From: a virus
Taxonomy: Duplodnaviria; Caudoviricetes
IMG/VR virus record: IMGVR_UViG_3300028797_000159
Location: 1 to 64,000 of that record
Direction: 5' to 3' (one strand)
DNA: 64,000 bases
The position numbers were made by a program, and so were the translations under genes. Below, piece by piece: positions 5,363 through 57,784 of this stretch (positions are counted from its first letter, which is position 1; each line of letters starts with the position of its first letter). The notes below the pieces were generated by a model. That model searched no databases. It was not told the origin of the DNA and was given only the letters and a program-made list of their open reading frames with translations.

Positions 5363-5403
5363 TATATTACACTCATAAATTGGATGGAAAGGTTCCATCC
5401 AAT
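5363..5403 (+). promoter_or_regulatory. minimal cassette: -10-like element plus leader hairpin
   Basis: TATTAT-acactcataa-attggatggaa-agg-ttccatccaat; -35 weak. Confidence 0.55.
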
Positions 5404-5423
5404 AAAGCATAGGAGACTTCGAT

Positions 5424-11134: not shown

Positions 11135-11632
11135 ATGACATATCAGAAAACGTGTAAAATTTGCGGGAATGAATTTGAATCCGAATCAAGGAATACACTC
11201 TATTGTTCTGAAAAATGTGCTAAACGTGGTGCAAAGAAAGCCTACCGTTCACGTAAGATGAAACATATAAATGCTGTTAAACGTGGTGATGATAAAGAAA
11301 TTGAAATACTAATTTCAAATGCATATAGACTTTCACGTGAAGTCGCGAAGATGTGTCTTATTAAAAAATGTGCATGTAAAGACCCTAATCATACATGTGA
11401 GGGCGAATTAGTTGTACATCATATAAATCATAACCCATTTGACTGTCACCCATATAATTTAATATGGCTATGTGAAAAAGCACATAAAGAAATTCATAAT
11501 AATGAGGAAGACTGTTCAATTATGGATGAAATTAAAGCTTATATAACAATAAGAAAACAATCAGAGATTAGAGAGCGGAATAAATTAAAACAACAGAATT
11601 CAAATTCAATAAATAGCGCTATTGATTGTTAA
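11135..11632 (+). CDS. HNH endonuclease with N-terminal Zn finger
   Basis: CKICG...YCSEKC; VHHINHNPFDCHPYNLIWLCEKAHKEIH. Confidence 0.8.
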   Translation: MTYQKTCKICGNEFESESRNTLYCSEKCAKRGAKKAYRSRKMKHINAVKRGDDKEIEILISNAYRLSREVAKMCLIKKCACKDPNHTCEGELVVHHINHNPFDCHPYNLIWLCEKAHKEIHNNEEDCSIMDEIKAYITIRKQSEIRERNKLKQQNSNSINSAIDC

Positions 11633-11634
11633 TA

Positions 11635-11734
11635 TAATCATCTTAATAATCATCTTAATAATCATCTTAATAATCATCTTAATAATCATCTTAATAATCA
11701 TCTTAATAATCATCTTAATAATCATCTTAATAAT
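11635..11734. repeat. 12-bp tandem repeat (taatcatcttaa) x8
   Basis: Eight exact units 11635-11730 plus a partial unit. Confidence 0.95.
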
Positions 11735-12040
11735 ATAATTAATTTATTTTATTTATTAATATATTATAATATTATATAATAAATAATACTAAATTCAAAA
11801 CAGTATAATTTAATAACAAATACCAACCTCATATAATTATATAGTATAATTCATTCAGATTGCGATATAATAAAGTTATATGACTTCTATTGATAAATAC
11901 ATACTATAAAAATGAGGTCTCAAATTTTGCAATTTAGACCTCATTTTAAATATAAATATTTACATGTCGTATTTGCTGTATTAAATTATATAATTTCAAT
12001 TTGACAATTTGAGTTTAATTTAAACCAATTTAACTTATCT

Positions 12041-50025: not shown

Positions 50026-50155
50026 TGTATCTGAAGTATTTCAAAATAGTATTCAAAATCCCTGATACAAAATTATGCAAAAATTTTGTTTACAAGGCAG
50101 TAGTCCTGTGGTATAATTATCCCATAATCGTTAAGGCAAAGAGCCTTACGCGATT
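50026..50155 (+). promoter_or_regulatory. repeat cassette copy 20 (unrelated leader hairpin)
   Basis: -35 50089; -10 50112; hairpin aatcg-taaggc/gcctta-cgatt. Confidence 0.85.
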
Positions 50156-50301
50156 CTTCTTTGACTGTATTTGGGGAATACTATGAGAAATGAAATTGAG
50201 GCTTTAATCCTTTTGGTCGTCGTTGTCTTTGGCTGCTTCTATGTCAATGAACTCACTGATCTTCTTGGCACTTTCATTTCTATGATTATGGGGTAAGACA
50301 T

Positions 50302-52715: not shown

Positions 52716-53075
52716 ATGCTTACAAAATTTAATAATATGGATGCTGTTGTGTCTGATGTTGTTCATTCATGTATTAACGACGGTTATAAGATTGATGTAG
52801 AAGAATCAATAATTGATTATGAAGAAGATAAGAACTGTGTATTTAAAACTGTTCTGAAAAAAGATGTTGATGGAATTGAATGTAAAACTGTTATTACACT
52901 CAATAGCAATGAAGATGATAAAACTAAATATTGCACTTATCACAAAGTAGAGATTGTTGGTGATACTAAATGGAGTGAAGAAACTTATACATATAATTAT
53001 ACAACTAACAAGTATAAACTAAATAACACTGTTAAAGATAATTCTCTAAATAAAACAAATAATAATATTATATAA
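52716..53075 (+). CDS. hypothetical protein, related to 63..638
   Basis: CINDGYKID. Confidence 0.6.
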   Translation: MLTKFNNMDAVVSDVVHSCINDGYKIDVEESIIDYEEDKNCVFKTVLKKDVDGIECKTVITLNSNEDDKTKYCTYHKVEIVGDTKWSEETYTYNYTTNKYKLNNTVKDNSLNKTNNNII

Positions 53076-53124
53076 ATAATTCCTGATATTATGATAATGT
53101 CATAGTGTTAGGAATTATTTATTT

Positions 53125-53239
53125 TTATCGAATCTGTATCAAAAATCCCTGATACAAATTGATGAATTTTTCTTGTTTACAAATCAGTGATCTTGAAGTA
53201 TAATATACCTATAAATTGAATGAGAATGGACTCATTCAG
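53125..53239 (+). promoter_or_regulatory. repeat cassette copy 22
   Basis: -35 53176; -10 53199. Confidence 0.9.
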
Positions 53240-53258
53240 TGAACTATGGAGACTCACA

Positions 53259-53498
53259 ATGATAAACCCATTTATTGGAATGCAAGAAATTCAGGAACTC
53301 AAAGATTCTGATCAATTCAATTATATAGTTGTTTATCCTGTGTTAAATAACAAACTTGAAATTATTCCATTTGTTGATAGATCTAGAGCTTTTAAAGAGA
53401 CTGTTAAAGTTTCAGAAAGTGGACAGTGGGTTTATATGATTGAACTCAAAGATGGTCACATCCTTGCATATCTTACTGGTTATTGTTCTAAACGATAA
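53259..53498 (+). CDS. hypothetical protein
   Basis: Start after GGAG. Confidence 0.6.
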   Translation: MINPFIGMQEIQELKDSDQFNYIVVYPVLNNKLEIIPFVDRSRAFKETVKVSESGQWVYMIELKDGHILAYLTGYCSKR

Positions 53499-53518
53499 TT
53501 TACTTGGAGAGCATAAAC

Positions 53519-53767
53519 ATGACTGAAATGTATTATCTTGTAAAACAAAATAAAGACGATGTTTATCTTCTGAGTGAACCGAATAAAATATTATTCTCAA
53601 CAAAAGATCGTAAAGAAGCTGAGCTTGCATATAAGAAAGTTGCCGGTGATAAAAAAGTATTTCCTGATGAATTTGATAAAGGAATTTATGTATTAGTATC
53701 AATGGGTCATTATCCACTTCATCCAAAAACACTCTATGAGATTAATTCGAATACTTACCCAGTGTAA
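53519..53767 (+). CDS. hypothetical protein, paralog of 4237
   Basis: See 4237. Confidence 0.6.
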   Translation: MTEMYYLVKQNKDDVYLLSEPNKILFSTKDRKEAELAYKKVAGDKKVFPDEFDKGIYVLVSMGHYPLHPKTLYEINSNTYPV

Positions 53768-53864
53768 ATAATATTATAGGAATAAGTTATGTTCGATATA
53801 TTATTAATTATAAGTGGAACACTTTTGTTTATTTCTGTAATTATGTATGCTGAACATATTTAAA

Positions 53865-54003
53865 TTTACATGTCATAGTTTCAGTCTGTATCGAAATAAA
53901 GTCAAAAATCCATGATACAAAATGATGAATCTTTTTTGTTTACAAGGATAGACTTTTGGACTATAATATGTCCATAAATTGAATGAGTCCATTCTCATTC
54001 AAT
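53865..54003 (+). promoter_or_regulatory. repeat cassette copy 23 (inverted leader hairpin)
   Basis: -35 53939; -10 53962; hairpin attgaatgagTCCATTctcattcaat. Confidence 0.9.
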
Positions 54004-54021
54004 AACCTAATGAGGTACCAA

Positions 54022-54330
54022 ATGGCATTTTACACATTGGAAGAGTTGGAATTGAATATTGCTGATCAGATTAATAAACTCGTCCAGAATGGCTATCATA
54101 TTGATGGTGAGGCTTCTACCTCAACAGGTAAGCGATTTAAAGCTGTGCTTAAAAAAGATTTCCCTCAACAAATGACTGTGATTTTTAGAAGTATTATCAT
54201 TTGTGATAAATATGCATCAGGTTTTGAAGTCTCGTGCAAAAAGCTTCCTGAACTCAATCATTCAAAGTATAATACTTATTATAAAGTACATGACAATATT
54301 TATACTGATTCTAAAACTGCAACTTACTAA
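54022..54330 (+). CDS. hypothetical protein, related to 63..638
   Basis: LVQNGYHID; GAGG RBS. Confidence 0.6.
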   Translation: MAFYTLEELELNIADQINKLVQNGYHIDGEASTSTGKRFKAVLKKDFPQQMTVIFRSIIICDKYASGFEVSCKKLPELNHSKYNTYYKVHDNIYTDSKTATY

Positions 54331-54807: not shown

Positions 54808-56121
54808 ATGATGGAAATAAAAGGGAAATATTGTACTGCAAAAATATATGCTGGCACTATAGAAGATGGTGTAGTTGAACAGTTAAAAGAAATTGTAAAC
54901 TGTCCAGCTTTTAAAGATCAGCAGGTTCGATGTATGCCGGACGTTCATGTTGGTGCGGCAGGTCCATGCGGGTTAGTAGCAACTATTGGTGAATGGGTAA
55001 ACCCGCAACACGTTGGTGTAGACATTGGCTGTGAAGTTTCAATGGTTTTTCTTAATAAGAAAATACCTGAATTTATTTATAAAGAATTTGAGGCAAAAGT
55101 AAAAGAGCAAGTTAAATTTGGACAGACTATACACTCAGAATGTAAAGTTGACAAATTAGAATTTGTTAAATTTATTCAGGAAGGCTTTGATACGTATCGT
55201 GGCATTTGGCCTGATAAGTTATATGAACTTCCGAAAGTAGTAACTATTGAATACATTAACTCTGTTATTAGTAGAGTTGGCATAAATGAAGAACACTTTT
55301 GGCGTTCATTAGGAACTGTCGGTGGTGGAAATCACTATTGGGAATACGGTGAAGGTTCTGAAGGTAATACTTGTCATTACGCATATTCAGTTCATTGTGG
55401 ATCTCGTAACTTTGGTTTAAAAGTATGTCATTATTGGACTAAGTTGGCAGAGTGCGGTTTATCTAAAAGCGAAATTAAAAGCATTACTGATGCTTTAAAA
55501 GTAGAGTATTCAAATACTTACTCATCAATGGAAGGTTTTTCTGAAGCGTTAAAAGAAAAATTAGATATTGAAAAATCTAAAAAGATACCTGGCTATTTAA
55601 CAGGTGACTTACTTAGAGGATATCTTTGTGATATGTGTTTTGCTCAATTATATGCAAAATTTAATCATATTACTATAGAAAAAATTGTGAACGAGATATT
55701 AGGTCAATATGGTATACATCAAATAGACAGAATTTCATGTACGCATAATTTTATAGACTTAGAAGATCATACTCTGCGAAAGTCAGCTATTCGTTCATAT
55801 AAAGGAGAGCGACTTTTGCTTCCATTCAATATGAAAAGCGGAACTGCAGTGTGTGAAGGCAAGTCAAATACAGAATGGTTAAATGGTTGTGCTCATGGGG
55901 CTGGTAGAAAGATGTCACGTACTATGGCAAAGTCTAAAATTTCTTTAGAAGAGTTTAAACTTTCAATGGAAGGCGTTTATTCTACTACTGTTTGTGAGTC
56001 GACTATAGACGAGTCACCTATGGCTTATAAAGATACTGATGAGATTAAAAGACTAATATCTGAAACTGCAGATATTAAATTTATGATGTTACCTAAGATA
56101 AACATTAAAGCAACTGAATAA
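54808..56121 (+). CDS. rtcB: RtcB 3'-phosphate/cyclic-phosphate RNA ligase
   Basis: MPDVHVG, VGVDIGC, LGTVGGGNHYWE, VHCGSR, HNF, HGAGRKMSR, DESPMAYKD. Confidence 0.95.
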   Translation: MMEIKGKYCTAKIYAGTIEDGVVEQLKEIVNCPAFKDQQVRCMPDVHVGAAGPCGLVATIGEWVNPQHVGVDIGCEVSMVFLNKKIPEFIYKEFEAKVKEQVKFGQTIHSECKVDKLEFVKFIQEGFDTYRGIWPDKLYELPKVVTIEYINSVISRVGINEEHFWRSLGTVGGGNHYWEYGEGSEGNTCHYAYSVHCGSRNFGLKVCHYWTKLAECGLSKSEIKSITDALKVEYSNTYSSMEGFSEALKEKLDIEKSKKIPGYLTGDLLRGYLCDMCFAQLYAKFNHITIEKIVNEILGQYGIHQIDRISCTHNFIDLEDHTLRKSAIRSYKGERLLLPFNMKSGTAVCEGKSNTEWLNGCAHGAGRKMSRTMAKSKISLEEFKLSMEGVYSTTVCESTIDESPMAYKDTDEIKRLISETADIKFMMLPKINIKATE

Positions 56122-56155
56122 AAATACCGGACAATTAATAATTGTCCGGCACGGC

Positions 56156-57004
56156 TTAACAATTTGATCTTCCTGGGTAATATCCTTCTGGACAGACTGT
56201 TGATAAAATATCTTCTTTTCCATTTGTGTACCAATGCTTTTTATTTTTAGCTCTACTGCATTTTATTTTATTAGCAGTTTCTTGTGATACAGACTTACCA
56301 GGTCTAAATCCTTCAGGACATTCAAATGCTAAAGTATTTTCTTTTCCGTTAGTATACCAGTGTTTACCAAACGAGCCATTTTCTTTTCCAACAGTTTTAC
56401 CTTTATGTGCTTCACTTTGCTTTCTACGATGTTCTTCTGTTATTAGTGGTCTATTTTTTGCAGCGATACTCATATTAGAACGATGTTCATTTGAAAATAA
56501 TCTACCTTTAACAAACCCTTCAGGACATTCATAAGTAAATATATTTGTTTTCCCATTATTAAACCAATGTTTATTTTTACTATAGCAGCCGACAGATTTC
56601 ATTGATCCGTTGCTAATTCTTTCTTTCAATAGATTTGAATAATCTTCTCTTAATTTAGCATATTCTTCTGCAGATATTTTGTAATCTGAATTTGGGCGAC
56701 TCCAAAACGCGTGTAAAGCGAATCTCATGCTATTGCCAGGAAATATATTTACTAATAACTTATGACACTCATAGTGTTCGGTTGCAGTTAGCAACACCAA
56801 ATTAAATTTACATCTTTTAAATTCTGTAAAGATTGATCTAGGTAAGATATGATGACATTCATAATAGCTACCATTTCCCTTTTTACGTAAGCCTAACTTA
56901 CATTCTTGCTTTGCGCGAGAAATAATCTCAATATACTTTTTACATGAGTCAATAATTAAATTAACGCCGATAATACTTCTTACTAAACTTTTGTTATATT
57001 CCAT
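56156..57004 (-). CDS. HNH homing endonuclease with NUMOD3 and W(F/Y)xNG...CPEG repeats
   Basis: ECHHILPRS...NLVLLTATEHYECHKLL; three HW.TNGK..CPEG repeats. Confidence 0.85.
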   Translation of the reverse strand: MEYNKSLVRSIIGVNLIIDSCKKYIEIISRAKQECKLGLRKKGNGSYYECHHILPRSIFTEFKRCKFNLVLLTATEHYECHKLLVNIFPGNSMRFALHAFWSRPNSDYKISAEEYAKLREDYSNLLKERISNGSMKSVGCYSKNKHWFNNGKTNIFTYECPEGFVKGRLFSNEHRSNMSIAAKNRPLITEEHRRKQSEAHKGKTVGKENGSFGKHWYTNGKENTLAFECPEGFRPGKSVSQETANKIKCSRAKNKKHWYTNGKEDILSTVCPEGYYPGRSNC

Positions 57005-57092
57005 AATTATTCCTACAAATAAATAGTTAATACAACTTAACTTAGCTGTTTATGTATATAGATATTTATTGGAATAATAACTATTAAGATCA

Positions 57093-57371
57093 ATACTAGC
57101 AATAGGAAAAGGCAATGAAGATTGGAACTGTTCAGGTCCTCATGGTGCTGGTCGGTTAATGTCGCGTAAAGAAGCTAAACAGTCGATTTCAATGAAAGAC
57201 TTCATTAACTCAATGGACGGTATTTATACCACTTCCGTCAATGAAGGAACTTTGGATGAGTCACCGATGGCATATAAAAATGCGCAGGAAATTATTGACT
57301 GTGTGAAAGACACCGTTGATATTGTTACCGTAATTAAACCGATTTACAACTTCAAAGCATCTGATGTTTGA
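57093..57371 (+). pseudogene. rtcB: orphan 3' fragment of a second rtcB allele
   Basis: ILAIGKGNEDWNCSGPHGAGRLMSRKEAK...DESPMAYKN...KPIYNFKA; stop upstream, no start. Confidence 0.88.
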
Positions 57372-57784
57372 TAAATAAAATGCGACATATTAAATATGTC
57401 GCATTTTAACAGGAGATCTTAACATGGCATACATAGGCAATAGTATGAATAATATAAATGTGAAGTTTTCCTATAATGAATTTGGATTATTGCTTAACGA
57501 AAAGAATTCTTTTATTGGAATCAACTTAATGACGACGAAAAGAATAAATTAATTCAAGATTTGAAAAAGAATTTGAAAGTATTGGAACTGTTCTGTCAGT
57601 AACAGAATTAAACATAGCATTAAGATTTTTGCTTACGCTTAATTTAGGATTTGCTCTCTAACCAACCTCTATGTGTCTTATCTTAAATAAGAATTCAATA
57701 GTGGATTAAAATTTAGCCTCTAGTCGTGTATATTTTCAATACATTGCTAGAGGTTTTATTTTACTTTCATTTCTGGAGTTTAGT

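Follow-up and report, generated by a model that had tools for sequence, protein, structure and literature searches.

Architecture of the cassette and its neighborhood

The window analyzed here is a 64,000-nucleotide stretch of phage DNA, namely, the opening 64 kb of an IMG/VR record that is 72.5 kb long (CheckV completeness estimate, 34%). A second contig of 212 kb (ENA ERZ27257207) encodes an identical protein downstream of the hairpin described below and has collinear neighbors; the phage genome is therefore ~212 kb. The following features make up the locus and the stretch immediately before it.

53074-53120: terminator-like stem-loop with a T-run, preceding the neighboring cassette (c53176)
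53176-53240, + strand: neighboring canonical cassette, with its promoter at 53176-53204 and a forward hairpin at 53215-53240
53247-53857, + strand: two-ORF module (53259-53498 and 53504-53767) between both cassettes
53905-53920, + strand: upstream conserved box AAAATCCATGATACAA (consensus AAAATCCCTGATACAA), with a C-to-A change at 53912
53939-53967, + strand: early sigma-70-type promoter of cassette c53939, consisting of TTTACA (53939-53944), 17 nt, and TATAAT (53962-53967), with 11 of 12 consensus matches
53978-54003, + strand: leader hairpin with arms ATTGAATGAG and CTCATTCAAT (10 bp), a perfect 26-nt palindrome except for the loop
53988-53993, + strand: inverted loop TCCATT (canonical AATGGA), the sole changed bases
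54012-54016, + strand: Shine-Dalgarno sequence GAGGT
54022-54330, + strand: downstream ORFan gene of 102 aa, with homologues P0002-P0008 at 77 to 94% identity

Judging from promoter geometry, transcription probably starts at ~53974, with the hairpin then lying 3 to 5 nt from the 5′ end. The 102-aa ORFan encoded at 54022-54330 belongs to no Pfam family.

In the 72.5-kb record, 26 cassettes carry the box and a TTTACA-17-TA(T/C)AAT promoter, all on the + strand; the number rises to ~27 once leader-hairpin variants are counted. A cassette begins with an optional terminator-like stem-loop, followed by the box AAAATCCCTGATACAA, an A/T-rich stretch, the promoter, a conserved stretch at the start of the transcript (AT-RYYYAY-AAAWTGAATG), the hairpin, a Shine-Dalgarno sequence, and the start codon. 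From copy to copy, the 17-nt spacers of the promoters show essentially no relationship. In one relative, two back-to-back (divergent) cassettes are found at L147:1772-2120, one of them on the minus strand (1772-1805); cassettes in this phage group therefore occur on either strand.

Some copies depart from the common hairpin. At 50041-50160, the usual box and promoter are followed by a wholly different leader hairpin (AATCGTTAAGGC...GCCTTACGCGATT), which is retained, with loop and stem changes, in two relatives (L141:6714-6790 and L144:7804-7880). A 5′ hairpin as such, beyond the AATGG type, seems to be required in the cassettes. At 5377-5409, a variant hairpin (ATTGGATGGAA-AGG-TTCCATCCAAT, after ...ACTCATAA) stands behind a degenerate promoter and looks like a decayed or divergent cassette.

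Two details set the cassette at 53939 apart. In the two cassettes where the upstream terminator-like stem-loop was looked at, it is present before c53176 and degraded before c53939. In addition, the C-to-A change turns CCCT into CCAT within the box, and CCCT is kept in the orthologous cassette of relatives. Both changes fit relaxed constraint on the cassette with the inverted hairpin. The two-ORF module upstream (53247-53857) is missing in L141 (9700-10010) and L144 (9780-10010), where a single cassette precedes the orthologue of the gene at 54022, and it precedes different genes in L146, L147, and L149. This is cassette-bounded module shuffling of the PeSL (promoter-early stem-loop) type. The inverted hairpin sits at the 3′ joint of this module, and the loop inversion might be linked to the recombination that inserted it.

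An exact inversion of the leader hairpin

The + strand at 53978-54003 reads ATTGAATGAG-TCCATT-CTCATTCAAT. A search of the window with the consensus 26-mer (ATTGAATGAGAATGGACTCATTCAAT) returned 11 matches, of which 10 lie on the + strand with 1 to 3 mismatches; the copy at 53978-54003 matches on the − strand with 0 mismatches. Shuffled sequences gave 0 matches. When the loop of the consensus was masked, 53978-54003 matched on the + strand, again with 0 mismatches. The exact consensus 26-mer is absent from the + strand across the whole window and is present in three relatives at the orthologous site. Because the 10-bp arms are perfectly complementary to each other, taking the reverse complement of the hairpin amounts to inverting the 6-nt loop alone. 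For a random hexamer, the probability of matching the reverse complement exactly is 1/4096 (~0.006 across 26 copies), and a chance origin is excluded.

An earlier note on this DNA had described the hairpin as an exact reverse complement of the canonical one, with a promoter and a downstream gene that keep their orientation. Both statements hold: the − strand match to the consensus is free of mismatches, and the promoter, the Shine-Dalgarno sequence, and the gene all lie on the + strand, like those of the other cassettes. The same note proposed a micro-inversion bounded by the 10-bp arms, and here the relatives provide the confirmation, as L141/L132/L133, L139, and L140 share the arms and the 3′ flank with the window and carry the loop AATGGA.

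Orthologous loci in related lineages

Homologues of the ORFan were retrieved at 94%, 93%, 88%, 86%, 79%, and 77% protein identity. The orthologous DNA was compared for four lineages (94%, 93%, 88%, and 77%), represented by assembled consensus sequences. The sites in these lineages read as follows.

94% lineage (L132, L133, L141): attgaatgag AATGGA ctcattcaat aacctaatgagg, forward
88% lineage (L139): attgaatgag AATGGA ctcattcaat aacctaatgagg, forward
77% lineage (L140): attgaatgag AATGGA ctcattcaat aacctaatgagg, forward
93% lineage (L134-L138, L144): attgagtgag AGCGGA ctcattcaat aatctaatgagg, forward

The comparison of orthologous loci suggested in the earlier note therefore gives a uniform answer, with the loop forward at the same site in 4/4 related lineages. 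Judged by the refutation that the note itself proposed, the relatives point to a one-off event. Over the 46 nt that precede the start codon, the window and L139 differ at the six loop bases and nowhere else; in the coding sequence, 30 of the 309 positions differ. Upstream of the gene, the window differs from L141 at the six loop positions and at three bases beside the start codon, and from L140 at the six loop positions and one more. Since the relatives carry the forward loop between identical arms, the forward orientation is ancestral, and the loop in the window is derived through a single multinucleotide event.

Wider searches returned no further members of the family. The canonical 20-mer is absent from IMG/VR, a scan with the 15-mer box gave single chance matches only, INPHARED yielded no match by megablast or blastn, and a pattern scan of GTDB genomes found none. 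The nearest IMG/VR relatives, identified via a 773-aa protein, are jumbo phages at 44 to 47% identity and lack the cassettes. A scan of JGI metagenomes for TTGAATGAG-N6-CTCATTCAA retrieved 32 loci, all unrelated and mostly TGAGTCATGACTCA palindrome arrays or chance matches. The arrays are found on contigs full of tandem or nested TGAGTCATGACTCA palindromes flanked by TTGAATGAG or CTCATTCAA (L096, L099, L102, L104, L106, L107, L109, L110, L118, L119, L122, L123, and L127).

Frequency of inverted loops

For a census of the family, a covariance model (R1) was built from the 23 canonical copies and run on both strands of the window, the remainder of the record, and seven loci from relatives (126.5 kb in all). 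This search retrieved 46 hairpins. In 44 of them the loop runs forward with respect to the promoter, in 1 it is inverted, and 1 carries another loop. The top matches are the orthologues in L139, L140, and L141 (50.1 bits, + strand); the orthologue in L144, whose loop is AGCGGA, reaches 35.1 bits. The copy at 53978 fits the model better on the − strand (33.9 bits) than on the + strand (30.1 bits). The remaining strong matches all lie on the strand of their own promoter, including the divergent cassette in L147.

Point substitutions in the loop (AGCGGA in L144, AATGGG, AGTGGA, and AATAGA) are at least as frequent in the same set as inversions. With 1 inverted copy among 46 hairpins and several point-substituted loops, inversion is therefore not a frequent event here. 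The proposal in the earlier note that the hairpin is recombinogenic at the DNA level is not supported by this count (1 inverted versus 44 forward), which amounts to one event.

Origin of the inverted loop

The explanation that we favor is that the DNA polymerase switched templates between the two perfect 10-bp arms while the phage DNA was being replicated. The nascent strand would jump to the complementary arm, copy the loop off the other strand, and return; in this way the ancestral AATGGA loop would have been inverted once, on the lineage of the window phage itself. We consider it quite probable that the locus records such a single template-switch inversion, giving a one-off loop-swap allele that is probably neutral or mildly deleterious and no programmed switch. 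Template switching is the most likely cause as judged from the product sequence, a product that other possible routes would share.

In published work, intermolecular template switching during replication is what turns a spacer between perfect arms into its exact reverse complement and leaves the flanks as they were (PMC8604942, PMC8794818), and “loop inversion only” events have been described at perfectly paired rRNA and microRNA hairpins, where they are rare since loops are functionally constrained (PMC8794818). The locus shows the sequence features of a spacer inversion: an exact reverse complement, perfect arms of at least 9 bp (here, 10 bp) in both states, a 6-nt spacer, and, in comparison with one lineage (L139), 0 other differences in the 46 nt upstream. 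It resembles other inverted-repeat spacer inversions, such as quasipalindrome mutagenesis, the spacer inversions of yeast (PMC8604942), and the minute hairpin inversions of chloroplast DNA, in its perfect arms, exact spacer flip, untouched flanks, and cluster of adjacent substitutions on one terminal lineage. Compared with the cases in PMC8604942 and PMC8794818, however, the inverted hairpin is one member of a multicopy phage hairpin family whose loop is otherwise near-invariant, and a 6-nt loop with all six bases changed falls at the long end of the reported range.

The earlier note had left the choice between template switching and cruciform resolution; the signature of the former is present, and the latter route is unlikely. 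Cruciform resolution produces hairpin-capped breaks and no inversion, and with a spacer of 6 bp, classical reciprocal recombination is implausible on steric grounds. A different kind of exchange, in which a cassette of opposite orientation would have been the partner for ectopic gene conversion or recombination, perhaps during insertion of the two-ORF module, has more to recommend it, and yet we regard it as unlikely. The palindromic arms would allow a minus-strand hairpin to align with a plus-strand one and donate its loop in inverted form. Relatives do have cassettes on the minus strand (L147:1772-1805), the 3′ joint of the module that L141 and L144 lack (53247-53857) falls precisely at the inverted hairpin, and PeSL crossovers have been mapped inside the loops of stem-loops in RB49 (PMC2839356). 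Against such an exchange, the cassettes of the 72.5-kb record lie without exception on the + strand, the homology would be only 10 bp per side, and local template switching gives the same product with no second partner.

An artefact of sequencing or assembly, for example, through amplification fold-back chimeras in a low-coverage consensus, is very unlikely. Hairpins promote polymerase template switching in vitro as well, and the contig is metagenome derived. For an assembler to flip 6 nt between 10-bp arms, however, the flip must already be present in the reads; moreover, the locus is otherwise clean and collinear with that of relatives, and the effect is seen in none of the other 45 hairpins. 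The notion that six independent point substitutions happened to yield the reverse complement can practically be dismissed. Loops do gain single substitutions, as the four variants listed above illustrate, but the chance per copy and over 26 copies is as low as calculated above, and the 40 flanking leader positions show no other change relative to L139.

The leader hairpin as a sense-strand RNA

Pairing and covariation statistics were computed from the 23 canonical copies (alignment A3). Across these copies, 82% of cells are paired, 6 of the 10 pairs show double changes, none of 500 shuffles reached the observed pairing or covariation, and sliding the 3′ arm collapses the pairing. For folding of both strands, a set of 26 copies was used, comprising the canonical copies, the inverted copy, and two copies with longer loops. 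In this set, the sense strand has 21 G·U pairs and the antisense strand 5, and the sense strand is the more stable in 19 of the 26 copies (mean difference, −2.1 kcal/mol; Wilcoxon p = 0.0007). Selection acts on the hairpin family as a sense-strand RNA.

Nearly all copies have the motif AATGG at a constant distance from the −10 element, including those of a subfamily with a shifted stem register in which the motif is partly paired. Because the promoter spacers have diverged while the motif stays fixed, the AATGG loop is under selection and not merely young. Conservation is stronger in the 5′ arm than in the 3′ arm, and there may be an additional constraint on the linear sequence of the hairpin. 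We infer that the hairpin acts as a 5′-terminal stabilizing stem-loop whose conserved loop is read by a putative factor.

Three other roles were considered for the hairpin and set aside. A symmetric double-stranded DNA operator for a dimeric repressor was rejected as the main constraint, given the strand bias of the G·U pairs. To serve as a small upstream ORF or an N-terminal extension, the hairpin would need the ATG in the arm to be in frame, which is the case in about one-third of the copies, as expected by chance (hand count). As an intrinsic terminator, it has no T-run after the stem, and the terminator scan raised no flag. A search of Rfam retrieved no family at the gathering threshold or at E values up to 1.

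Consequence of the flip and the question of a switch

The flip replaces the near-invariant AAUGG(A) loop by UCCAUU and leaves the stem, the promoter, and the ribosome-binding site intact. Over a 34-nt stretch that spans the hairpin, the RNA fold of the inverted copy has 10 bp and −11.8 kcal/mol, compared to −11.3 to −11.4 kcal/mol for the canonical form; over the whole leader, the predicted folds have identical structures before and after the loop swap (−17.6 versus −17.1 kcal/mol). Pairing between the loop and the start codon, which the inversion would make possible (CCAUU with AAUGG), is absent from the minimum-free-energy fold. Neutrality of the flip is an assumption on our part; a conserved loop implies a functional consequence. 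If the hairpin merely protects the 5′ end, the change of loop would be neutral. If the loop is read, the downstream gene would have escaped such control.

The earlier note also saw the hairpin as a possible switchable element. That idea is not sustained by the data: one copy is inverted, the relatives are fixed in the forward orientation, and no serine or tyrosine recombinase (PF00239 or PF00589) was matched in the 72.5-kb record, which covers 34% of the genome. A 6-bp segment is, in addition, far too short for site-specific enzymatic inversion. The arrangement is reminiscent of programmed inversion switches (Hin/Gin/Cin and fimS) in that a sequence between inverted repeats is found in the opposite orientation beside a promoter. 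In those systems, however, inversion requires a dedicated recombinase and involves segments of hundreds of base pairs, whereas here the segment is 6 bp, no recombinase is found in the record, and relatives are fixed one way.

A reversible flip without a recombinase, in which AATGGA and TCCATT versions of the loop interconvert within the population and thereby alter regulation of the downstream ORFan, strikes us as highly improbable, more so even than an artefact. Spacer inversions at perfect inverted repeats in yeast can recur and revert over evolutionary time (PMC8604942), and with a loop so strongly conserved, flipping should alter whatever reads it. The counts nevertheless speak against toggling, with inversion seen in 1 of 46 hairpins and, at the orthologous site, in 0 of 4 related lineages; furthermore, the record contains no detected invertase, and both the predicted leader structure and the accessibility of the ribosome-binding site are unchanged.

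More speculatively, the AAUGG loop could be the recognition site of a putative RNA-binding factor, of phage or host origin, that coregulates ~45 early transcripts, with rare reversible template-switch flips uncoupling and recoupling single accessory genes and the copy at 53978 caught in the uncoupled state. Such a regulon might operate through stability, antitermination, or timed decay. As a whole, we judge this scheme to be improbable, a little more so than an exchange with an opposite cassette. The inverted copy offers a natural loop-swap control, in which stem, stability, and context are kept and the loop is complementary. A comparison of the TCCATT and AATGGA versions for expression, mRNA half-life, and factor binding would show whether the loop is read and by what.

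Relation to known stem-loop systems

PeSL cassettes have been described in the T4-type phages RB49/phi1, PST/T4, and nt-1/KVP40 (PMC2839356, PMC4122927). In PST/T4, the PeSL promoter consensus is TTTACW-N17-TAYWAT, and the stem-loop lies upstream of the promoter (PMC4122927). The cassettes of the window share with PeSL a repeated unit of ~100 to 150 bp consisting of an AT-rich region, a strong sigma-70-type early promoter (TTTACA-17-TATAAT, similar to the PST/T4 consensus), a Shine-Dalgarno sequence, and a start codon; a terminator-like stem-loop precedes some copies. Their promoter, Shine-Dalgarno sequence, start codon, and variable region agree with the published description; likewise, the copies precede small ORFans, and cassettes bound the indels of gene modules between close relatives. 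Unlike PeSL, for which the published stem-loop is upstream of the promoter, the cassettes here also have the conserved box AAAATCCCTGATACAA, and they carry a second, transcribed hairpin with an AAUGG loop right after the start site, which is not described in PMC2839356 or PMC4122927. The accessory genes include T4-like ones: an RnlA-type RNA ligase and, in relatives, an endonuclease V-type Pyr_excise gene.

RNA signals downstream of early promoters provide a second point of comparison. Stem-loops of the ompA type act as 5′-terminal stabilizers on bacterial mRNAs. Like these and like lambda boxB and HK022 put, the leader is a stable hairpin near the predicted 5′ end, and, as in signals of the boxB/put type, its loop is conserved across many transcripts, as expected for an RNA recognized by a protein. 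It differs from ompA-type stem-loops, boxB, and put in having no sequence or Rfam similarity to them and no boxA-like element that we could see. The loop flip itself belongs to a documented class of mutation; the conserved leader hairpin of the cassette family is previously undescribed. The locus also provides a clean, polarized case of PeSL-type module shuffling in a phage lineage where such shuffling was previously undescribed.

Two minor observations concern other parts of the window. At 11610-11753 lies a noncoding tandem array of about ten 12-nt units (ATAATCATCTTA). Downstream of the ORFan, rtcB (437 aa) and a reverse-strand gene of 282 aa (56156-57004) have no nucleotide match in relatives, where rtcB encodes 405 aa (window 54808-57436 compared with L141:10808-12092). 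Positions 57088-57436 alone match the 3′ end of the relatives' rtcB, a pattern that fits a putative replacement of the allele, with the 3′ end of the former one retained.
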